32,000 bases of DNA from Planctopirus limnophila DSM 3776 (GCF_000092105.1 NC_014148.1:2040001-2072000), one strand, 5' to 3'; shown: positions 17,839 through 32,000, numbered from the stretch's first letter. Program-made: numbers and translations. The notes: generated by a model not told the origin, from the letters alone.

Positions 17839-20800
17839 TTAAATTCCACCCAGCTTCTTCAACAGCTTCAATAGCGTCGGTTTCTTCACCTGATCGGCTG
17901 TCACGAAGCTGAGTTTGATGACTTGTTCGCCATCCGAGTTGGTTTCAATCGCGGGGTCTTCACCCAGGTCGCGGATTTCTCCCAGGGTGATGGGTTTGCT
18001 GCCGGCGGTTCCTGCAGGGGCGAAGAGTTCAAGATCGAGGCTGCCAGTGCGTTTCGTAATGATGTTCGCCAGGACGCGGGGCTTCGCACCGGCTTTGGCG
18101 TCTGCCTTGGCAGGAACCACGCGGTACTTCACCAGCATCTTCTGCGTCCAGTCAACTTCCGCCGCCGGGAAGGTGGTCTCCATCAATTCAAACAGAGCCT
18201 CGGCAACGGCCGGTTCCCAGAGCACTTTCCCCTTCAAAAAACCTTTCCGCATGACGTGCCATTTGCGACCCAGTTTCTTCCAGGGCATCAGGTCTTCGGG
18301 ATTCGACGCCTCGGCTTTTTCGCCCAGCGAAAGATAGCTGGCCAGTGCCTCTTTGAAGAAGCTGGCGAAGGCAGGTGTGGCGACATCATCAGCCTTCGCC
18401 AGAGAGATCGTGACCTCCTGCAAGCCCCCCGCCATAGCCTTCACCCGGACTCGCTCGGCCCGGTTGTAAATGGGGAGTTCATCGAGATCGTCGATATCGA
18501 GAAGATCGAGAGATTCAGCGAGTTCCGTCTGGTCGAACGTCCCCTTCGCCACGCGGAACTTGGCCTGCAGCAGCCATTCATCGCCCGTCAGTGCATGAAT
18601 AAACCAGCTGGGAATCCCTTTCGATTTAGCTTCAATCACACTGCGATCATTCCAGACAACAGTGACGCCTGAATCCTCCTCTAACGGTTCAAAGATCGTT
18701 TCCAGAAGCGAGACAGGCCATTTCGCAGGACGACCCGAATTGGCCAGGTGATCGACCAGATGCCACTTGCGGCCATCGACCTCCCAGGGCATTTTGGCAC
18801 TCTTGCCGAGCGACTTGAGATCAAGATCATCCCGTCGGCGCGCGAGGGCGGCCTTCGCATCAAAGACTTCGCGGGCTCCCTTGCGGCTCGCTTCCAGAAC
18901 CGGGGCGAGACATTGAGCAGTCAACGAGACATGCTGCTGAGGATTTTTCTTCGATGGGTCATCATCTGGAACTTCCCCTTGAGCGATGCGGACGAGATCT
19001 TCAGGAGTTCCCGTCGCCACGATGTAGCCCCCTTCGCTGCCGGCAGCGGGGCCGAGATCAACAATCCAGTCGCAGGTTTTGATCACATCGAGGTTGTGTT
19101 CAATGACGACGACGGTATTCCCCGCATCGACCAGGCTTTGCAGGATCTTGAGCAGCTTGCGGATATCATCAAAATGGAGGCCTGTCGTTGGCTCATCCAG
19201 CAGGTAAAGGGTGCTGCCAGTACTGGGACGGGCGAGTTCAGCCGCGAGCTTGACGCGCTGGGCCTCGCCGCCGGAAAGGGTCGGCGCAGGCTGGCCGAGG
19301 GTCAGATAACCGAGACCAATCGCATCAAGAACTGCCAGCGGCCCGCGAATTTTGGGGAAGCTCTCAAACAACTTGACGGCTTCGGAAATGGGCATCTCAA
19401 GCACATCGGCAATGTTCTTCCCCTGGAACTTGACCGCCAGAGTTTCAGGATTGTAGCGGCGTCCGTGGCAGGTATCGCACTCGACCCAGAGATCGGGGAG
19501 GAAGTGCATTTCAATGAGTTTCTGGCCATTCCCTTCGCAGGTCTCGCAGCGACCACCAGCCCGGTTGAAGCTGAAGCGGGCGGGTCGATATCCGCGCACC
19601 TTTGATTCAGGAAGATGAGCAAACAGCTCACGAATGTGTTCGAAGACGCCTGTATAAGTCGCGGGGTTGGAGGCAGGGGTGTTTCCGAGTGGCTGCTGAT
19701 CGACAACAATCAACTTGCTGAGGTAATCCAGCCCGAGAAGTTCATCGTATGGCCCGGGCTGTTCGCTCGAACGATGCAGTTTGCGGGCAATGGCTTTGCC
19801 GAGAGTGTCGGCGATCAAGGAGCTTTTGCCACTTCCGGACACACCCGTGATGGCTGTCAGTGCCCCCAGAGGAATCCGCAAATCAACATTGCGAAGATTG
19901 TTCTGGCGGGCCCCAATCAACTCCAGCCAGAAGAGAGGCTTGCTTGCAGAAGCCTTGGTTGTGGCTGCCACCTGAGCCTTGGCCTTCCCTTTCGTCGCAG
20001 CACCTGATTTCGCCCGATCAACTGGTGCCTGGCTTCTGCCAAACCTCGCAGGGACACGGCGTTCGGTCGGAACGAGAATATCTTCCTTAAGAGAGAGAAA
20101 TCTGCCCGTGAGCGAGTCGTCGCAGTGTTCGATCTCGTGTGGTGTTCCTTCCGCTGTGACAAGGCCACCCAACCTGCCAGAACCGGGGCCGAAATCGTAC
20201 AATCGATCGGCGGCTGCGAGAACTTCGCGATCATGCTCGACGAGCACCACAGTGTTGCCAAGATCGCGCAGCTTCTTCAGTGCCTGCAGCAGACGCCCGT
20301 TATCGCTGGGATGCAGCCCGATGGTCGGTTCATCGAGAACATACAGCACACCTGTCAACGCCCGGCCCAACTGACCCGCTAATCGAATCCGCTGGCTTTC
20401 TCCGCCGGATAGCGTCGGAAGTGTGCGGCTCAAGGTGAGGTAATGCAGACCGACATCAACCAGAAAATCAAGGCGACCAGCCCCTTCTTCCAGCAGGTCT
20501 CCCGCGATCTTCTGTTGGGTTTTGTTGAGTGTAAGTCCATGCAGAAACTCTTGAGCTTTATTGAGTGGCAATTCGCACAACTGCTGCAAAGTCTTCCCTT
20601 GCAGGCGCACGGCAGAGGCATCTTCTCTCAAGCGGCTGCCACTGCATGAAGAGCAGGGAACTTCACCAATCAAATCGAACAGCGATTGGCGGAATGAGTA
20701 CGAAACGCGTGAGGCTTCTTCGAGAGCCGGGTACAGCCCTTTGAACTGGAAGCGGTATTTGACGGCTTGATCGGCCGTGGATGATTTCTTCGATTTCGCT

Positions 20801-23800
20801 GCTGCTTTGGTGCTCGACTTTTTGGCCGCTGCGGGCTGAGCCACCTGGTAAACCGTGAACCACTGCTCGCCAGCCCCGAAGAGAACCAGTCGCTGCTCAG
20901 CCGGTTCGAGCTGATTAAATGGCGTGTCGAGCGAAAGGCCGACTCCCCGGCTCAGGGCGTCCAACAGTTCGAACATTGCGGGAGATTGCCGAGGGTCTGG
21001 CCAGGCCGAAATGGCTCCTTCGCGTAAAGTTCGTGTGGGATCACCAATGAGAGCCGCAAGGTTCGTGCCCTGCTGAGTGCCCAGACCTTCACAGCTTTCG
21101 CACCATCCCAAGGGACTGTTGAACGAGAAGTTGTGTGGTGCCAATGTCTCAAAACTTCTGCCGCATTGCGAGCAGGCACGAAACAGACTGAAGGGCTGAA
21201 CTTTCCACGAGTTCTCCGGCTTGTCGTCATCGACGAAGGCGACACGAATCACGCCTTTGCCCTGATCAAAGGCTGCCTCGACAGAATCAGCCAGACGGCG
21301 GCGGCTGCCCGAGGCAATCGTGACGCGATCAATGACAATTTCGACGACATGCTTTCGCCGGCGGTCGATTTCGGGAACTTCTTCCAGTCGATAGGTGGTG
21401 CCGTCCACACGTACCCGGCTGAAGCCCTGTTCTTTCAGCCGTTCCCACACTTTGGCGTACTGCTGGCCAACGGGAACTTCCTGCGGTGCCAGAACCAGCA
21501 GTCTGGTGCCTTCCGGCTTGGCCATGAGGAGATCGATCACATCGTCGGTGGTTTGCGATTCCACCGCGATGCGACAGTCGGGGCAATGTTGCGTTCCCAG
21601 GCGGGCATAGAGGACACGCAGATAATCGTAAATTTCCGTCGTGGTGCCGACCGTCGAGCGCGGCGTGTGGCCGACCGTCTTCTGCTCAATCGCAATCGAA
21701 GGCTGAAGACCGTGAATATGCTCGACTTTGGGCTTGGGCATCTGACCAAGAAACTGCCGGGCATACGACGAAAGGGACTCGACGTATCGCCGCTGGCCTT
21801 CCGCGTAGAGCGTATCCATGGCGAGTGACGTTTTGCCGGAACCACTGGGGCCACAGAAGACACTCATCTGATCGCGAGGGATATCGAGACTGATTTTCTG
21901 CAGGTTGTGCTGGGAGGCCCCGCGAATGACGATGTTGGTCTGTGCTTCACGGTCTTGCTGCTTGAGTGGCAAAGCTGCTTGCCAGCGGGAAGGTGAAGCG
22001 ACTTTTGTCTCAGGAGGAAAAGTTCGAGCCACACTTTTTTGTGGCATCTCAACCACGTGATCTGCCGTGCTTTTGCGTCTTTTCTTCGTTCCCTGCCCCT
22101 TGCCAGTGGAGGTGGCTGCGGACCCCAGTGAAACGGGCTGAGATATTGATCGACCGCTCGCCTCAAGGACTCTGGCCAGAAAGCGACCCGTGTATGAGGC
22201 CTCACATTGGGCCACCATTTCTGGTGTCCCCTGTGCGATAATCCTGCCACCACCTTTGCCACCTTCGGGCCCCAGATCGATCACCCAGTCGGCCGTCTTG
22301 ATGACATCAAGATTATGCTCCACGACAATGACGGTATTCCCGGCATCCACAAAGCCATGCAACACCCGCAGCAGGTGGGCGATATCAACGAAGTGCAGGC
22401 CAGTTGTCGGTTCGTCGAGAATGTAGACGGTTTTGCCAGTGCTGCGTTTGCCAAGTTCTTTCGCGAGTTTAATCCGCTGAGCTTCACCACCAGAGAGGGT
22501 AGGAGAGGGCTGCCCCAGCTTGATGTAGTCGAGGCCCACATCGTGCAAAGTCTGCAGCAGATTTTTGATCTTGGGGAGGTTTTCAAAATGTTCAAGTGCC
22601 GTCTGAACATCCATATCGAGGACTTCAGCAATGTTCTTACCCTTGAAACGCACCTCCAGCGTCTCTTTATTAAATCGGCGTCCCTGGCAGACCGGGCAGG
22701 TCACCCAGATATCGGCAAGAAAGTCCATTTCAAGCTTGTTCGAACCATGCCCTTCGCAGGCCTCGCAACGACCGCCAGGGACGTTAAAACTGAAGCGTCC
22801 CGGCTTAAACCCGCGGGTTTTAGAATCGGGAAGTTGTGTGTAAAGATCACGAATCAGGTCGAAGAGTTTGACATAGGTGGTAGGGTTCGACCGGGGTGTA
22901 CGACCAATCGGTGACTGATCAATATCGATGGCCTTATCGACCAATGCGAGATTGTCAAAACTCTGATGAGCACCGGGAGCACCTTCACCAAGATTGACTT
23001 CGCGATTGAGCAGCGGCCACAGAATATCGTTAATCAGCGAGCTCTTCCCTGAACCGGAAACACCGGTCACGCAGATGAACTTCCCCAGTGGAAACTCGAC
23101 ATCGACATTTTGCAGGTTGTGATGCGTGCAACCTTGTATCGAGATGGATGTTCCTATTCCTGAGCGACGTGTTTCGCGGATTTCGATCTGCTTGCGGCCG
23201 GAGAGATAAGCTCCCGTTTCACTTTCTTCATTCGCCAGAAGTGCCTCAAGACTCCCTTCATGAACAACTTTTCCACCACGAACACCGGGGCCGGGGCCAA
23301 AGTCGATAATGTGATCGGCAGCCTTCATCGTTTCATCGTCATGCTCCACCACGATCACGGTATTACCCTGATCGCGAAGATCCTGCAGGCTCCCCAGCAG
23401 CATTTCGTTATCGCGAGGGTGCAGGCCAATCGATGGTTCATCGAGAATATAAACCACACCCACAAGGCCACAGCCAATCTGCCCAGCCAGACGAATCCGC
23501 TGACTTTCTCCACCACTGAGCGTCGGTGCCGTCCGATCCAGCGCGAGGTAATCGAGACCGCAGCGCAAAAGAAAACCCAGGCGGCCACGAATCTCTTTAA
23601 GAACTTCTTCAGCGATATATTGCGAAGTCGGATCCAGATCGAGCTGTTCAAAAAACTCGAAAGCTTCACCCACACTGAGATGGCAAACCCCAGGAAGTGA
23701 CAGACGCTGTTTTTTCGCCTGGGAAGCCGCCGATGAGGAACCGCTGCGTGCTATCGCCGGCGTAGTCATCTCCAATGCTTGGCTGGAGATAAAATAGTTG

Positions 23801-25143
23801 CAGGCCTGAGCGTTGAGTCGCGAACCGTGGCAAGTGCTGCACCCCACGACTTCCATATACTTTTCAAGCTGCCTGCGGCGCATCGGGTTTTTGGCTTTAC
23901 GGTACTCTTCGAGCAGTTCGCGGACATAGCCTGTGTACTTCCCACCATGCTTCCACACTCCGCCCGAGTGCTTGAAACTGTACGTCACATGCTGATTGCC
24001 CAGCCCATCCAGGAAGAGATCGCGCGCCCCCTGGGGCAGTTCATTCCACGGGGTTTTCAGGAACTCACCGGGCTTGAGGCTCAGTGTTTTTTCAATCGCC
24101 GCAGCCACGCCATCAATGAGATGCCTGCGCCAACGGCCCAGCTTGGAAAGTTTACCTGAAAGTGCGAGTGCTCCCTTCTGGATAGAAAGGGATTCATCGG
24201 GAATGAGCCGATCAAGTAAAAAATCGTGCCGCATCCCGAGACCGTTGCAGTCGGCACACATCCCTTGAGGGCTGTTGAAACTGAAAAGTTGCGGCGAGGG
24301 AGGATCGTAACTGATACCGCAATGGGTGCAGGCATAAGCCGTGGCAAAAAACTGTTCGCTCGGATTCTCCTGAGACGGCGAATCGTCTTCACTCTGAATA
24401 GCGGCAGAGAGGAATTCTTCGGGAGAATCCTGCAAAACAATGAGTTGCCCATTCGCCAGTTTGAGCGCATTTTCTACAGCTTCGGCCACACGCTGGCGAG
24501 TCGATTTCCCGGCCACCAGGCGGTCAATCACCACATCAATCGTGTGCTTCATCTGCTTATCAAGCTGCAGACTTTCGCTCAGCGAAATGAATTTGCCATC
24601 AACCCTGGCGCGGAGATAACCCTGCTTGAGAAGATCAACGAAAAGATCCTTAAACTCACCCTTCTGACGCTGAATGAGTGGTGCCAGGATCTGAAACTTT
24701 GTTCCGGCAGGTAAAATGAGAATCTGCTCGACGATGTTCTCAGGAGACTGGGAAGTGATCGGGCGATGGCATTGGTGGCATTCGGCTTGGCCAACCCGGG
24801 CAAACAGCACTCGCAGGTAATCGTATATCTCGGTGATCGTACCCACGGTACTGCGCGGATTTCGACCAGCCGTTTTCTGTTGAATCGAGATCGAAGGAGC
24901 CAGCCCGGTGATCGAATCGACATCCGGCTTGGGCATCGATCCCAGGAATTGCCTCGCGTACGTCGAGAGGGATTCGATGTACCGCCGTTGACCTTCGGCG
25001 TAGAGCGTATCAAAGGCGAGAGAGCTCTTGCCCGAGCCACTGACGCCCGTCATAACAATCAGTTTGTTCTTGGGCAAAACCAGGCTGACGTCACGCAGAT
25101 TATGTTCTCGGGCACCACGAATCGTGATTTCAGATCTGGTCAT
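17839..25143 (-). CDS. uvrA: Tandem UvrA-UvrA fusion protein with extra C-terminal region (2434 aa, four ABC ATPase modules)
   Basis: Unit 1 is residues 1-995 (22159..25143). It begins [16 protein letters not shown]...[36 protein letters not shown]. It carries [12 protein letters not shown] with [11 protein letters not shown], then [27 protein letters not shown] and [11 protein letters not shown]. Unit 2 is residues 1069-2085 (18889..21939). It begins [16 protein letters not shown]...[36 protein letters not shown]. It carries [12 protein letters not shown] with [11 protein letters not shown], then [27 protein letters not shown] and [11 protein letters not shown]. Both units keep the CxxC zinc modules and the segments at the positions of the UvrB-binding and insertion domains. 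The reading frame is uninterrupted. Confidence 0.95.
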
Positions 25144-28133: not shown

Positions 28134-28442
28134 TCAATTCCACACAAAACCACCAAATGCAAATGCCACATCATGAAGTCTAACCCAGTTTCGAATCTCC
28201 CACATGATCGCCTCTGGCTTCTCTTGGGGTTGGCTATCCAGGAACTCTTGAAGCAAGTCACGGATATTGTGGGCAACTTCACTACCGGTAACGCCTTGCA
28301 CCTCGCTTAGCGACTGGGCTAGAGAGGACATGCTTGGCTCTGATTGAATGCGACGTTTGAGCAATAGGTAATACTCAAGCTTCACCCCGTATAGTTCCAT
28401 AACATACTGGTGAATATCCGGCTTTTTGCGTGATCGTTTCAA
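28134..28442 (-). CDS. Small protein following the orphan RHS toxin (102 aa); putative immunity protein
   Basis: It starts at TTG 23 nt after the toxin stop on the same strand, with an alternative ATG at 28400 (MELYG). It has no signal peptide and is acidic. The segment SLAQSLSEVQGVTGSEVAHNIRD is loosely HTH-like. Support comes from position only. Confidence 0.45.
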   Translation of the reverse strand: MKRSRKKPDIHQYVMELYGVKLEYYLLLKRRIQSEPSMSSLAQSLSEVQGVTGSEVAHNIRDLLQEFLDSQPQEKPEAIMWEIRNWVRLHDVAFAFGGFVWN

Positions 28443-28465
28443 CTGTTATCTCCATGATTTGACAG

Positions 28466-30289
28466 TCAGTCAACTCGGTGTATTTCAAGACCTGATGGGT
28501 CTTCAACGTATATTTCGGGCCAGCCTCCCGGTCGTCCAATCGGATTATCTTCCGCTTTCTCAGCGGGCTGGATTCTAAATTTCTTACGAGGAATTTCCGC
28601 AGAAACAGTCCAGTCCGGCGTCGAGTTTCCAGCTGGAATTCCATATCGTTCATTAAAATTTGGAATGGTATCTGGGCGATTGTATGTCCAATAGCTGCCA
28701 TCTGGCTTGTTAAAGCCTGTCGTCCCTGATCGATAACAAGTCAACGATTTTGGGGTTTTGGGAATGCAGCAGGCTGCAATCTTCGGTAGCGTGCTTCGAA
28801 TGTTTCGAACAACTTCCCCAGCGCGTTTGTAGACGCTTTTTCCTATCGCGCTGAAACCACCGACGTCATTGACAGAATCCCTGACCAGATCCTTGGCCAT
28901 CTTGCAGCACTGGCCGTTTCGCTCCAAGCAATCCGAAAAATTATTGCTACTCCAGAGCTCTGACAATTCGGGCTTTAGTTGAGATTCCAAGAATTCCCAC
29001 ATCTTCTTCAACGCCTGGATTTCTCGGAGCCCTGAATAGACATCCCATGCCAGCCAGGCAGCGGCGATTATGTCCCCAATAGGTAGTGGGCCATCTGCTG
29101 CAAGCAAGATGGCTGATCGCGCTCCAGCTTTTAACGCACGTTTTCCAACTAGTGCTGCAATTTTTACTGACAACACTTGGAAAAGCGCCTCCCCGAAGGC
29201 TGCTCCCATATTACACCCGGCCAATCCAAGAGGATCGATCAAAGCCAGTGGGCGCCCGCTAACGTAAGAATAAAGATTGTTGCCTTCATCGAGGATATGT
29301 GGGTCACGAACCAGCCAGCCGATTAGTACGTGAAGCTGTCGGTATCGCACACAATACAAAGAGGTGTTTGTGTCAAAACGGTAGCCTGCATACAGTGTCT
29401 CCCATTCTAGAATATTTCCCGTCAAGCTAAAGGCGTCGTCTAGGAATGTGGCCATTCCGTAAGCGTCGTATTCGTATCTTGCATGAACAACGCCATCTGC
29501 TGCGACGACTACACTCGTATTCCAGTTGTCTTCTTGAAGTGAGTAGTGTCGAACAGCAGGAGGTTCGTCACTAATGATGCTTCGATCGCGTAGGATGAGG
29601 TCGTCCAGATACCTGGCTCCCCACACGAAGTGACTATTCGTACCTTCCAGTACACCTTTTAGTTCTTCAACACACTGCCAGGCATCGGTGAAGTAGGCGT
29701 GGGTGGTTTCATCGAGGGCGCCGGAGTTGTAGTTTTTGACGACGACTCGGAAGTTTCTCGCGTCGTATTGGTATTCGGCGACGGTTTCTAACGTGCTGGA
29801 GACTTCTTCCTCCAGTTTGACCAACCGGTTCCAGGCGTCGTAGGTGGCCGTGTAGGCTTCGTCCATCTGTTTGGGTTTGGGAATCGTGGTCATGTTGCCG
29901 ACGGCGTTGTAGGCCGGGTCGGCCCAGGCGCTGCCCACCGTGTTGGTGATGTCTGTGATTTCATTCACTGGGTTGGCAGTGCGTTCCTGTTCGATACTCC
30001 AGGTGGAGCCGTTATCGCTTTGCTTAAACCCTTCCCAGTTGCCAGTGGGGTCGAGGTTCCAATCCTGCTTGAACGCGGTGGATGCCAGAGCGGTTTGGGT
30101 GCCGTTGAGTGTGCCGCGGTGGGCGGTCTTTAACCGCTGGAGGCCGTCGTAGGTGTAGAGCCAGTCGTATTGGGCACTGTGGGCGGTGGCGATAGGGTTC
30201 TTCCGCCAGATGCGGTTCGAGGCGCGGTCGTAGCCGTACTTGATGCGGTCGAGATCGGTCCCCGCTTTGTGCCAGCGGTTGTCCTTCAC
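28466..30289 (-). CDS. Orphan, 5'-truncated RHS repeat protein fragment: about 356 aa of YD-repeat/RHS core plus a 251-aa C-terminal toxin region
   Basis: The YD repeats are YGYDRASNRI, YTYDGLQRL, ATYDAWNRLV, YQYDARNFRV and YEYDAYGMA. The core end is YAGYRFDTNTSLYCVRYRQLHVLIGWLVRDPHILDEGNNLYSYVSGRPLALIDPLGL, with DPLGL ending at 29222. The frame stays YD-like upstream of the GTG start (FFRLDRFGRVKDNRW) but meets a TAA about 14 codons further up. The usual >1000-aa N-terminal RHS shell is therefore absent. Confidence 0.85.
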   Translation of the reverse strand: MKDNRWHKAGTDLDRIKYGYDRASNRIWRKNPIATAHSAQYDWLYTYDGLQRLKTAHRGTLNGTQTALASTAFKQDWNLDPTGNWEGFKQSDNGSTWSIEQERTANPVNEITDITNTVGSAWADPAYNAVGNMTTIPKPKQMDEAYTATYDAWNRLVKLEEEVSSTLETVAEYQYDARNFRVVVKNYNSGALDETTHAYFTDAWQCVEELKGVLEGTNSHFVWGARYLDDLILRDRSIISDEPPAVRHYSLQEDNWNTSVVVAADGVVHARYEYDAYGMATFLDDAFSLTGNILEWETLYAGYRFDTNTSLYCVRYRQLHVLIGWLVRDPHILDEGNNLYSYVSGRPLALIDPLGLAGCNMGAAFGEALFQVLSVKIAALVGKRALKAGARSAILLAADGPLPIGDIIAAAWLAWDVYSGLREIQALKKMWEFLESQLKPELSELWSSNNFSDCLERNGQCCKMAKDLVRDSVNDVGGFSAIGKSVYKRAGEVVRNIRSTLPKIAACCIPKTPKSLTCYRSGTTGFNKPDGSYWTYNRPDTIPNFNERYGIPAGNSTPDWTVSAEIPRKKFRIQPAEKAEDNPIGRPGGWPEIYVEDPSGLEIHRVD

Positions 30290-30404
30290 GCGGCCAAAGC
30301 GATCGAGGCGGAAAAAGCCACTGCTGGAGGATTAGCCCCAGCAGTGGGAAAAAACTTCACGTCAATTGTCAAAGAGCAGAGAGATCAGGATGGAGGAGGC
30401 AAAA

Positions 30405-30457: not shown

Positions 30458-30522
30458 GAGCGGGTGGAAAATGTGGTGGTAGGCAACTGAGAAACAAAGG
30501 CAGGATGTAGCCTGCACTACGG

Positions 30523-31074
30523 TTAATCTCTCTCACCAATTTTGCCGTGTTTGTTAACTTCCAAAACGAATCTGCTTTCTCTTTCGGTTGTAATTTCGGC
30601 TATCGCACGCTGAGCGTATGAAACAAGAGTTTCATGCGATACTCCCGATCGACTGGCAGAATTCCATCTGTTTTCTATTTCCGCGGAAGCATCATTGAAG
30701 CCTCTTTCATAAAACTCAAACATCACGCCGTTGGATTGACCCGAATGAAACAAAAGTCGTTCGGTATTTCCTGCAATCTTGTTTTCAAGCGACGCTTGCC
30801 ATCCATAGAAGTGGCCTTCATACCAGTCAGATTTTCCAAGACGAAGAATTGGTGGCTTCTGTCCATCTTTGTCGCTATTTGATACGATACTAGTTGGAGG
30901 GATGTCTGAGGGAGCTGTTAAATCTTGCGGATAGGAGAAAATGATTTCTCGGTCTTCTCCTCGTGTCTGTCTGCCGCTTGACGTGTCGCATCCTGTCTGT
31001 ATGAACGCTGTCAGCGCAAACGCCATTGAAAGACATCGGCCATATTTACAAAAACTATTTACTCTTGTTTGCAT
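30523..31074 (-). CDS. Putative lipoprotein-type immunity protein for the upstream RHS toxin (183 aa from ATG 31074)
   Basis: MQTRVNSFCKYGRCLSMAFALTAFIQTGC looks like a signal peptide with an imperfect lipobox (QTGC). GGGGAG lies 6 nt upstream of the ATG at 31074. The start overlaps the last 20 nt of the toxin gene, which suggests translational coupling. The track ORF extends to 31176 inside the toxin gene. Confidence 0.55.
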   Translation of the reverse strand: MQTRVNSFCKYGRCLSMAFALTAFIQTGCDTSSGRQTRGEDREIIFSYPQDLTAPSDIPPTSIVSNSDKDGQKPPILRLGKSDWYEGHFYGWQASLENKIAGNTERLLFHSGQSNGVMFEFYERGFNDASAEIENRWNSASRSGVSHETLVSYAQRAIAEITTERESRFVLEVNKHGKIGERD

Positions 31075-32000
31075 TCGCATCTCCCCATTCGGCTTGGCAA
31101 ACTGCACAGTAGGCAATCTCATTGAATCGCTTGTTATCTTCGTAAGATTTGATCTTCTCCTTAAACTCTTTGTCATTCTTCCTGAGAACTACCATTGGGT
31201 TAACGTTTCCAAATCCATTGTTTGCGTGATACCAAAGTGCATCATCAGGGTTGAAGTAGAAAAAGTCAAAATTGAAGTAGTCTCCAGCTGATGCAGGGGG
31301 CCTTGAGAGAATAGCGTTCCAGGTTTTCTTGCCATTCAGCGAGAATTTTCCATTTTTTTCATTAATTGCAATTTCACGAGCCCCTCCTGGAGTGCCGTTG
31401 TTCCAGACAATGGCTATCAATCTCGCTTCAGTTCTTGTTCCGTAAATGTTTGTTCCAAATCCTTTGCAACATTCTTTGGTTTCGTTCATGTCCTTCATTC
31501 GCAGTCGCGCCTGTTCAGGATCACGGTAGCAATGTTGTAAATCTGGCAAAAACCCGTCTCGGAGCTCGAATCCGCTTGGGTTGAGTGTGTATCCGGGGAA
31601 GCCGAGCATGCAGAAAGTTACGCCAATGCAGCCGGCTTGTGCAGTATTTATAAAGTGGCCCTTTGGGATTGATGTTTTCACAAGTTGAAAGTTTTTATTC
31701 TGCCATTGAGATAGGGTATCCCATGGGAGCAGATTTTCTGACCATTCGTCCCACCATTGATCAACTGTCAAAACATCAAGACCATAAGGGTCAATAGTGT
31801 TCAATTGATTGACACGCTCATAGAGGGAGAGTCCGTCGACGTATCTCAATGGATCTCTTCGTGTCCATTTCCCTAACTTGAAATGCAAACATCGGTAGCG
31901 GGAATCATAAATCTTTGTGTGCAGATCGTAATGTGAGCCTCCGTATGCGACGATCCATTTGTTTGTGTTAGCTGAAGATGAGAAAATTAGATCTAGTTGT
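31055..32000 (-). CDS. C-terminal end of an RHS repeat protein (continues beyond the window end) with a 240-aa Cys/His-containing toxin domain
   Basis: The frame is open from base 31999 with no stop upstream of the track's TTG. It reads ...WIVAYGGSHYDLHTKIYDSRYRCLHFKLGKWTRRDPLRYVDGLSLYERVNQLNTIDPYGL, which is the RHS-associated core end; DPYGL ends at 31778. The CT domain contains NTAQAGCIGVTF and DALWYHANNG. Confidence 0.85.
   Translation of the reverse strand, partial: QLDLIFSSSANTNKWIVAYGGSHYDLHTKIYDSRYRCLHFKLGKWTRRDPLRYVDGLSLYERVNQLNTIDPYGLDVLTVDQWWDEWSENLLPWDTLSQWQNKNFQLVKTSIPKGHFINTAQAGCIGVTFCMLGFPGYTLNPSGFELRDGFLPDLQHCYRDPEQARLRMKDMNETKECCKGFGTNIYGTRTEARLIAIVWNNGTPGGAREIAINEKNGKFSLNGKKTWNAILSRPPASAGDYFNFDFFYFNPDDALWYHANNGFGNVNPMVVLRKNDKEFKEKIKSYEDNKRFNEIAYCAVCQAEWGDANANKSK

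Follow-up and report, generated by a model that had tools for sequence, protein, structure and literature searches.

A microbial transglutaminase-like toxin domain with a predicted exported immunity lipoprotein at an RHS locus of Planctopirus limnophila

At one end of a 32,000-nucleotide (nt) stretch of Planctopirus limnophila DSM 3776 (GCF_000092105.1, NC_014148.1:2040001-2072000; hereafter the window), the rearrangement hot spot (RHS) gene Plim_1602 ends in a C-terminal toxin domain (CT) that, by sequence profile and modeled fold, is a member of the microbial transglutaminase (MTG) family PF09017 (Transglut_prok). The gene that overlaps its 3′ end, Plim_1601, encodes a predicted exported lipoprotein that is most likely the cognate immunity protein. 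We consider it likely that the two constitute an RHS polymorphic toxin-immunity module, in which an MTG-type thiol enzyme would act in the envelope of the target cell and be blocked in the producer by the lipoprotein. All features of the module lie on the minus strand, in the order RHS core tip, CT, Plim_1601, two hairpins, and Plim_1600, a second and shorter RHS fragment. Modules that pair an RHS toxin with an immunity gene 3′ of it are ordinary and already known; what would be new here is the antibacterial use of a well-known enzyme family, a cargo not previously tied to RHS proteins, and a new immunity family.

The toxin domain and its RHS carrier

The translation of 31999..31055 reads ...YDSRYRCLHFKLGKWTRRDPLRYVDGLSLYERVNQLNTIDPYGL, followed by exactly 240 codons and a TAG stop (31057..31055), which places the 240-amino-acid (aa) CT at 31777..31058. 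It directly follows the 3′ end of the RHS repeat and core region (31778..32000), closed by a DPYGL motif (31792..31778). The RHS-associated core model TIGR03696 matches this tip with an E-value of 9.4e-8 and a score of 32.5 bits, exactly the curated cut-off, and the match runs to DPYGL; the complete Plim_1602 protein (P0038) scores 25.2 bits with the RHS_repeat family PF05593 (cut-off 22). Plim_1602 has both the repeats and the RHS-associated core with a DPxGL end by which RHS proteins are recognized, and the original prediction of an RHS tip followed by a 240-aa CT holds. By cluster look-ups, the gene is Plim_1602 (753 aa; about 1.3 kb more of it lies beyond the window, with the start near position 33316), and the RHS fragment that follows is Plim_1600 (607 aa). 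Plim_1602 and Plim_1601 are both annotated in the source genome and both have homologs elsewhere; on this evidence they are real genes and not chance open reading frames (ORFs).

The family of the CT emerged from its homologs. When the CT and Plim_1601 were compared with Pfam and NCBIfam, the sole match was the RHS core, and a word-indexed homology search with the CT returned no matches. A phmmer search of 1.84 billion representatives gave 25 CT matches, about 21 of them genuine, and at least 12 homologs lie directly 3′ of an RHS core tip, including that of a full-length 1491-aa RHS protein. An alignment of 18 sequences shows the conserved motifs GC[IV]G[VL]T, NCY, ECC, NFDF, W.HAN, and C..C. 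The 18-member profile built from it had only four distinct matches among the sequences of the Protein Data Bank (PDB), all of them microbial transglutaminases: KalbTG (5m6q, E 4.6e-22) and the S. mobaraensis MTG group (1iu4, E 4.7e-17; 1iu4, 9ihs, and 3iu0 all at E ~5e-17). PF09017 itself is matched by six of the 18 members, with P0010 (48.1 bits) and P0017 (30.5 bits) above the cut-off of 25. An AlphaFold2 model of the CT (pLDDT 80, pTM 0.81) pointed the same way: its top three Foldseek matches in the PDB, 6gmg, 3iu0, and 9ihs, are all MTG, with a probability of 1.00 and a query TM-score of 0.50-0.51, and nothing else was significant (next match, E 0.034). A word-indexed search with the 18-member profile reached only 10 proteins, which form a distant sub-clade, and a metagenome scan with a 4-sequence CT alignment found nothing. 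By profile and model, then, the CT is a member of the Streptomyces/Kutzneria-type microbial transglutaminase family PF09017. The original prediction had allowed for a papain-like, NlpC/P60-like, or transglutaminase-like fold, and the profile and Foldseek comparisons narrow this to the last of the three. Because MTG alone was matched by both sequence and fold, we rejected an NlpC/P60 or papain-type amidase, for which neither the Pfam nor the fold searches gave any similarity.

A distant MTG-like branch (L007 4430-5714; L008 222-3784; P0029-P0031) carries a conserved NEPRDxxGRWTTGG junction in place of the RHS tip. In L008, a neighboring gene has the same junction followed by the protein-glutaminase domain PF18626. 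Since both domains stand behind one junction, it seems that a further polymorphic toxin system can exchange its cargo between two glutamine-modifying enzyme families.

The CT contains the NTAQAGCIGVTF motif (Cys codon 31630..31628) and LWYHANNG (His codon 31228..31226), the pair that had been singled out as candidate catalytic residues. Profile alignment pairs GC[IV]GVT with MTG Cys64, NFD[FY] with Asp255, and W.HAN with His274. The predicted nucleophile is Cys50 of the CT (Cys563 of Plim_1602; 31628..31630, minus strand), which lies in AGCIGVT, aligns with MTG Cys64 (YGCVGVT), and is kept in 14/14 homologs that span the site. The most conserved partner residue is Asp171 (Asp684 of Plim_1602; 31265..31267, minus strand), in NFDFF, which aligns with MTG Asp255 (NFDYG) and is kept in 17/17 homologs. 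His184 (His697 of Plim_1602; 31226..31228, minus strand), in WYHAN, aligns with MTG His274 (WTHGNH); this position is His in 12/17 homologs and Gly in the other five, three of which have a His three residues on. The order of the residues is Cys-Asp-His, as in MTG, where Asp255 takes the catalytic role of the usual His in a C-D-H triad (PMC10318531, citing Kashiwagi 2002). We predict from these alignments that the catalytic triad of Plim_1602 is Cys563-Asp684-His697. Fold prediction and profile searches, the checks proposed with the Cys-His pair, thus uphold both of its members as counterparts of MTG Cys64 and His274; the Asp in NFDFF had been overlooked.

The homolog alignment also reveals a four-Cys cluster within 31097..31531 on the minus strand, made up of C83 (31531..31529), C103 (31471..31469), C224 (31108..31106), and C227 (31099..31097). 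All four are present in every homolog of the RHS clade, and in the P0022 clade three of the four (C83, C103, and C224) are replaced together. KalbTG aligns only at the C83 and C224 positions and has Cys at neither, and MTG aligns at none of the four. The cluster could represent two disulfides or a zinc site; if disulfides, it would fit periplasmic action.

The carrier is shorter than had been expected. A long RHS gene with an N-terminal secretion signal had been predicted upstream; Plim_1602 encodes only 753 aa and begins in the middle of the RHS region, its N-terminus (MKFTPPAGDHSP...) falling within a repeat and lacking a hydrophobic segment. In an alignment with the full-length 1491-aa homolog P0018, residue 310 of Plim_1602 falls on residue 1070, so that Plim_1602 corresponds to about residues 760-1491, or roughly the last half, of that protein. 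Plim_1602 does not show the make-up of a full-length shell, for which a length of more than ~1200 aa, an N-terminal plug, and a domain for delivery or secretion would be expected. Just upstream, beyond the window, Plim_1603 is annotated as a 'YD repeat protein'. Plim_1602 and Plim_1603 may be the two parts of a split RHS protein, or Plim_1602 may be an orphan. No type VI secretion system (T6SS), PAAR, or VgrG genes and no full-length main RHS gene were seen in the window or at the related locus of Planctopirus hydrillae.

Plim_1601 and its pairing with the toxin gene

Plim_1601 (30523..31074, minus strand) encodes a predicted lipoprotein of 183 aa, which we propose as the cognate immunity protein from its annotation, a homolog at a related toxin locus, and transposon insertion sequencing (Tn-seq). 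The translated product is 100% identical to the annotated Plim_1601 of P. limnophila DSM 3776. At the junction of the two genes (31055..31086, minus strand), GGGGAG (31086..31081) and a 6-nt spacer precede the ATG (31074..31072), and the ORF overlaps that of the toxin by 20 nt (31074..31055), just as had been described. The 183-aa start is the one annotated by NCBI and lines up with the start of homologs that are 53-56% identical; a longer, 217-aa start was rejected on these grounds.

Export of Plim_1601 was judged from its sequence and from comparisons between loci. The N-terminus, MQTRVNSFCKYGRCLSMAFALTAFIQTGC, has three basic residues (R4, K10, and R13), then a 12-residue hydrophobic stretch and then QTGC; the segment LSMAFALTAFI has a mean Kyte-Doolittle value of 2.14 over 11 residues. 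The signal peptide and its lipobox-like end would comprise residues 1-29 (30988..31074, minus strand), ending ...AFIQTG-C29 (Cys codon 30990..30988). After Cys29 come an Asp at +2 and a linker rich in Ser, Gly, Thr, and Arg. This is the layout of a lipoprotein, with a basic n-region, a short hydrophobic h-region, and a Cys at +1, and the UniRef name of the protein is 'Lipoprotein'. The TGC is invariant among Plim_1601 and its two 53-56% identical homologs (IQTGC, THTGC, and TQTGC). Plim_1601 is thus a predicted exported lipoprotein, with the signal-peptide start and imperfect lipobox that had been noticed earlier, the departure being the Gln at -3.

The close homologs of Plim_1601 (on the metagenomic contigs L001-L004 and L010) are standalone genes with their own ~335-bp upstream spacer, flanked on one side by a ParE-like toxin/antitoxin pair and on the other by an ankyrin/beta-propeller-like gene. 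A metagenome scan with the immunity alignment returned only this ParE-adjacent context again. These homologs may be orphan immunity genes, an interpretation that fits and proves nothing.

Related toxin loci provide the comparison for the pairing. The closest toxin homolog outside Planctopirus, P0005 (37% identity), is an RHS tip fragment. The gene after it (locus L013) overlaps it by 25 nt and encodes a 190-aa homolog of Plim_1601 (hhalign 96.4%, E 1.2e-9; BLASTP E 5.9e-7) with an N-terminal membrane or signal segment. The full-length RHS-MTG protein P0018 (L012) overlaps by 1 nt with the gene for a 120-aa canonical lipoprotein (...VAISSC), and on the P0007 contig the overlap is 11 nt. The genes 3′ of three distant MTG-like toxins encode a small membrane protein (L006), a signal-peptide protein (L007), and a leucine-rich repeat protein with a signal or anchor (L008). 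At all five other readable toxin loci, or 6/6 with the window, the product of the downstream gene therefore starts with a membrane segment, a signal peptide, or a lipobox. The candidate partners of the unrelated CT of Plim_1600 are unlike those of the MTG-like loci in having no export signal.

Published P. limnophila essentiality data (PMC10632474), used here as gene-level Tn-seq indices, add a functional asymmetry. Plim_1601 has an insertion index of 0.020 and is classed as 'unclear', being 'essential' in 4/12 parameter settings, and the indices are 0.072 for Plim_1602, 0.054 for Plim_1600, and 0.075-0.159 for Plim_1597-1599 (PMC10632474). Plim_1601 is about 3.6-fold depleted of insertions, with ~11 insertion sites where ~30-40 would be expected (Poisson P 6e-5 to 2e-8), whereas the toxin gene and all downstream genes tolerate them. 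An active toxin-immunity pair is recognized by just this contrast, with insertions tolerated in the toxin gene and depleted in the gene after it. Plim_1045/1046 and Plim_1049/1050 repeat the asymmetry, each combining a non-essential YD-repeat gene with a small, depleted neighbor. These loci lie outside the window; according to the tables, their YD-repeat genes have indices of 0.067 and 0.082 and the adjacent 'essential hypothetical' genes 0.010 and 0.008. Two genes close to the YD-repeat gene Plim_1603, namely Plim_1605 and Plim_1606, are listed as essential hypotheticals too (PMC10632474 tables). These genes may be RHS immunity genes, a suggestion drawn from the tables. The words 'immunity', 'antitoxin', and 'YD repeat' are absent from the main text of PMC10632474, where the immunity reading is not raised.

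A genome scan for the module locus found it in P. hydrillae only. The orthologous module of P. hydrillae JC280 has 96% nt identity, with an alpha/beta-hydrolase gene in front of it. Its lipoprotein gene has remained intact, and both this gene and the sequence 3′ of a stop codon within the toxin gene are nearly identical to those of P. limnophila. The second cassette of P. hydrillae has a different CT in place of that of Plim_1600, and at a further P. hydrillae locus the same core (88%) is joined to still another CT; a variable CT on a conserved core, swapped between relatives, is what is expected of RHS genes. In comparison with the P. hydrillae orthologs, the ratio of nonsynonymous to synonymous changes (pN/pS) is ~0.14 for the CT and ~0.16 for Plim_1601, each from few substitutions. 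Judged by these ratios, the CT and Plim_1601 are under purifying selection between the two Planctopirus species, which implies that the P. hydrillae stop is recent or a draft-assembly error.

The overlapping exported immunity gene of the original prediction thus finds support in the homologous pair at L013, in five further loci, and in the Tn-seq depletion, and Plim_1601 is most likely the cognate exported immunity protein.

Proposed mechanism, alternative readings, and neighboring genes

In the mechanism that we envisage from the chemistry of the family, the Cys would attack the side-chain amide of a peptide-bound glutamine, releasing ammonia and leaving a thioester intermediate. An amine would resolve the thioester into an isopeptide cross-link and water would resolve it by deamidation; plain amide hydrolysis is also possible. 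Plim_1601 is probably co-translated with the toxin gene, given the 20-nt overlap, and would sit on the periplasmic face of a membrane and neutralize the toxin there in the producer. If an exported Plim_1601 neutralizes in the periplasm, the site of toxin action in the attacked cell would be its envelope or periplasm, and it is reasonable to infer that its action lies outside the cytoplasm. Within this scheme, catalysis by the CT and its substrate, lipidation and export of Plim_1601, binding between toxin and immunity protein, and delivery of the 753-aa RHS protein are all elements that we infer. The debated envelope invoked in the original prediction is a dated framing, now that a Gram-negative cell plan has been described for P. 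limnophila (PMC5394234).

Several observations weigh against this reading. The CT on its own has no Pfam match at E <= 0.1 and falls below the PF09017 gathering threshold (25 bits), so its MTG membership rests on transitive and profile evidence, and it reaches a TM-score of only 0.50 with MTG (240 versus 330 aa). Plim_1602 has half the length of a complete RHS protein and lacks a recognizable delivery domain. On the side of Plim_1601, the lipobox is non-canonical, with Gln at -3 (His in P0002) where [LVI][ASTVI][GAS]C is the rule; the structure model is unusable (pLDDT 41, from three sequences in the alignment); the protein has no Pfam relative, and a profile of its family gave only chance-level matches in the PDB; and its sole other close homologs, 53-56% identical, stand alone near a ParE-like pair with no toxin beside them. 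The Tn-seq class is 'unclear', not 'essential', with ~11 sites in a 552-bp gene. In the P. hydrillae toxin gene, TGG has become TGA at Trp182, two codons before the His, creating a premature stop (L005 10544-10546, equivalent to 31232-31234 of the window). Finally, expression of EAT14, an MTG-family toxin of Chitinophaga rupis, is toxic to E. coli and also to yeast, and for E. coli the passages of the source that describe it mention no export signal (PMC11297309). The intracellular toxicity of EAT14 makes a cytoplasmic target possible for the MTG fold.

We consider it unlikely that the toxin acts in the cytoplasm, as most RHS toxins and EAT14 do, with Plim_1601 being either not exported or not a true immunity protein. 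The killing of E. coli and yeast by EAT14 on intracellular expression speaks for such a target, at least in the parts of that study that concern EAT14 (PMC11297309), as do the imperfect lipobox of Plim_1601, the occurrence of its homologs away from toxins, and the absence of a signal peptide from Plim_1602. Set against these are the export-type N-termini of the downstream genes at 6/6 MTG-like loci, one of them homologous to Plim_1601, and the absence of such a signal from the candidate partners of the Plim_1600 CT; in addition, the characterized MTG enzymes are secreted. Quite unlikely, in our estimate, is that Plim_1602 is a silent, decaying orphan RHS fragment and that the depletion of insertions in Plim_1601 reflects noise or an unrelated role. 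Plim_1602 does start mid-RHS and encode only 753 aa, a second orphan-like fragment lies next to it, the Tn-seq class is no firmer than 'unclear', and the P. hydrillae copy has both a premature stop and an unrelated upstream gene. Decay is difficult to reconcile with pN/pS values of 0.14 for the CT and 0.16 for Plim_1601 or with a 3.6-fold depletion specific to Plim_1601, an asymmetry that an active pair predicts and that recurs at two YD-repeat loci, and Plim_1603, going by its annotation as a 'YD repeat protein', could supply the missing part.

A third alternative concerns the reaction and is compatible with an envelope-acting MTG-type toxin held in check by Plim_1601. It is possible that the Cys-Asp-His enzyme is a hydrolase, either a peptidase or amidase acting on peptidoglycan stem peptides or a pure glutamine deamidase, instead of a cross-linker. 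Periplasmic effectors of the Tae/Tai type are mostly cell-wall amidases, and a sister polymorphic toxin in L008 has the protein-glutaminase domain PF18626. Zhang et al. 2012 (PMC3482391) point out that toxins with a transglutaminase fold may be thiol peptidases, and protease activity could not be excluded by the authors of the EAT14 study, according to its section on that toxin (PMC11297309). Conversely, all solved relatives of the CT are true transglutaminases, and we found no similarity to NlpC/P60 or other amidases; the reaction outcomes themselves are not separable by sequence alone.

Taking an envelope-acting MTG-type toxin neutralized by the Plim_1601 lipoprotein as the preferred reading, the recurrence of this cargo on RHS proteins (at least 12 homologs) and its consistently predicted-exported partners point to envelope-located, glutamine-directed killing with a new immunity family. 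A more specific version, somewhat doubtful at present, is that the half-size Plim_1602 is an active weapon, perhaps forming a two-part cage with Plim_1603 by analogy with TcB/TcC, and delivers the transglutaminase to the periplasm of sibling or competitor cells, where it would cross-link or deamidate envelope proteins or peptidoglycan-linked glutamine. If this were true, Plim_1601 and the partners of two other YD-repeat genes would be conditionally essential 'hypothetical' genes in P. limnophila. More broadly, several genes scored as 'essential or unclear hypothetical' in the P. limnophila Tn-seq data might be explained as immunity genes of active RHS toxins. The locus may also offer an entry point to RHS toxin delivery in this phylum. 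Its interest, which we regard as moderate, rests on the Tn-seq link and the half-size carrier.

Downstream of the module, a pattern scan detected two terminator-like hairpins on the minus strand, a weaker one directly 3′ of the Plim_1601 stop (30515..30500) and a strong one with a 12-bp stem followed by CTTTTTCC (30347..30318; -22.3 kcal/mol, z-score -2.95). They close the two-gene unit Plim_1602-Plim_1601, and the strong hairpin separates Plim_1601 from Plim_1600. The latter (30289..28466, minus strand) encodes the 607-aa shorter RHS fragment (TIGR03696, 36.7 bits) with another CT of ~250 aa, for which no Pfam or PDB relative was found. Its candidate partner ORFs (28134..28442 and 28375..28701, minus strand) carry no export signal in their sequences. 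Plim_1600 and Plim_1597-1599 are non-essential in Tn-seq (PMC10632474), which fits Plim_1600 being a silent orphan module. We also considered the 2434-aa ORF Plim_1595 (17839..25143, minus strand) as a main rhs gene and rejected it as a multi-UvrA protein: UvrA models match over three stretches (NF001503, 2535 bits), indicating about two and a half UvrA units fused. The remainder of the window holds housekeeping and efflux genes.

Comparison with known systems

Microbial transglutaminases are secreted enzymes used industrially for protein cross-linking, and the characterized members act extracellularly. The CT resembles MTG (1IU4, 3IU0) and KalbTG (5M6Q) in profile and fold homology, in the GC[IV]GVT, NFD[FY], and W.H.N motifs, and in the Cys-Asp-His order. 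MTG and KalbTG are Sec-secreted zymogens with an N-terminal pro-peptide, whereas the CT is carried at the C-terminus of an RHS protein and has a proposed immunity protein encoded by a gene of its own. The CT is also shorter than MTG (240 versus ~330 aa) and has the extra four-Cys cluster.

The toxin precedent for this fold is EAT14 of Chitinophaga rupis, a toxin associated with an extracellular contractile injection system and described, in the passages that treat it, as having a C-terminal PF09017 domain (Mol Syst Biol 2024, PMC11297309). According to the same passages, killing was abolished by each of the substitutions C298A, D397A, and H410A (PMC11297309). EAT14 and Plim_1602 are alike in deploying an MTG-family domain as a delivered toxin, and the Asp-to-His spacing is 13 in both, going by the residues named there for EAT14 (D397 and H410). 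As described in those passages, EAT14 is loaded into the contractile injection system by way of its DUF4157 N-terminus and is toxic inside E. coli, yeast, and human cells. No immunity gene appears in the passages on EAT14, whereas the toxin of Plim_1602 rides on an RHS protein, is paired with a predicted exported partner, and presumably targets bacteria. The literature that we searched held no paper tying microbial transglutaminase to RHS toxins, and EAT14 was the sole toxin precedent found.

Transglutaminases of another type are known from polymorphic toxin systems. Polymorphic toxins, including some that contain RHS repeats, have recruited Tox-TGase domains as well as inactive N-terminal transglutaminase domains; the active site described for these domains is that of a papain-like peptidase, with C, H, and D conserved as a triad (Zhang et al. 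2012, PMC3482391). The CT is likewise a predicted transglutaminase-type thiol enzyme in a polymorphic toxin system. Tox-TGase, which we take to have an animal-type transglutaminase core, differs from the CT, whose C-D-H order matches MTG only; Transglut_core-type Pfam models did not match the CT or its 17 homologs.

Among periplasm-acting effectors with lipoprotein or periplasmic immunity proteins, those known, such as the Tae/Tai pairs of the T6SS, are mostly cell-wall amidases. Plim_1602 differs from these in having an MTG fold and not one of the NlpC/P60 type, in being borne on an RHS carrier instead of acting as a free effector, and in lacking a T6SS context, and the parallel is an analogy only. 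Within that limit, the module would share with Tae/Tai the combination of a Cys-nucleophile enzyme with an exported immunity protein, whose location would predict the compartment in which the toxin acts.

The enterobacterial rhs loci of Salmonella, E. coli, and Dickeya contain orphan rhs-CT/immunity modules, and the Plim_1602 locus departs from these in that its half-size gene seems active according to Tn-seq and in that no full-length main gene, PAAR, VgrG, or T6SS was seen in the window or at the P. hydrillae locus. In its architecture, it is much like them, with a conserved core ending in DPxGL, variable CTs, a proposed immunity gene directly downstream, shorter fragments in tandem with homology in the core, and replacement of cassettes between relatives.

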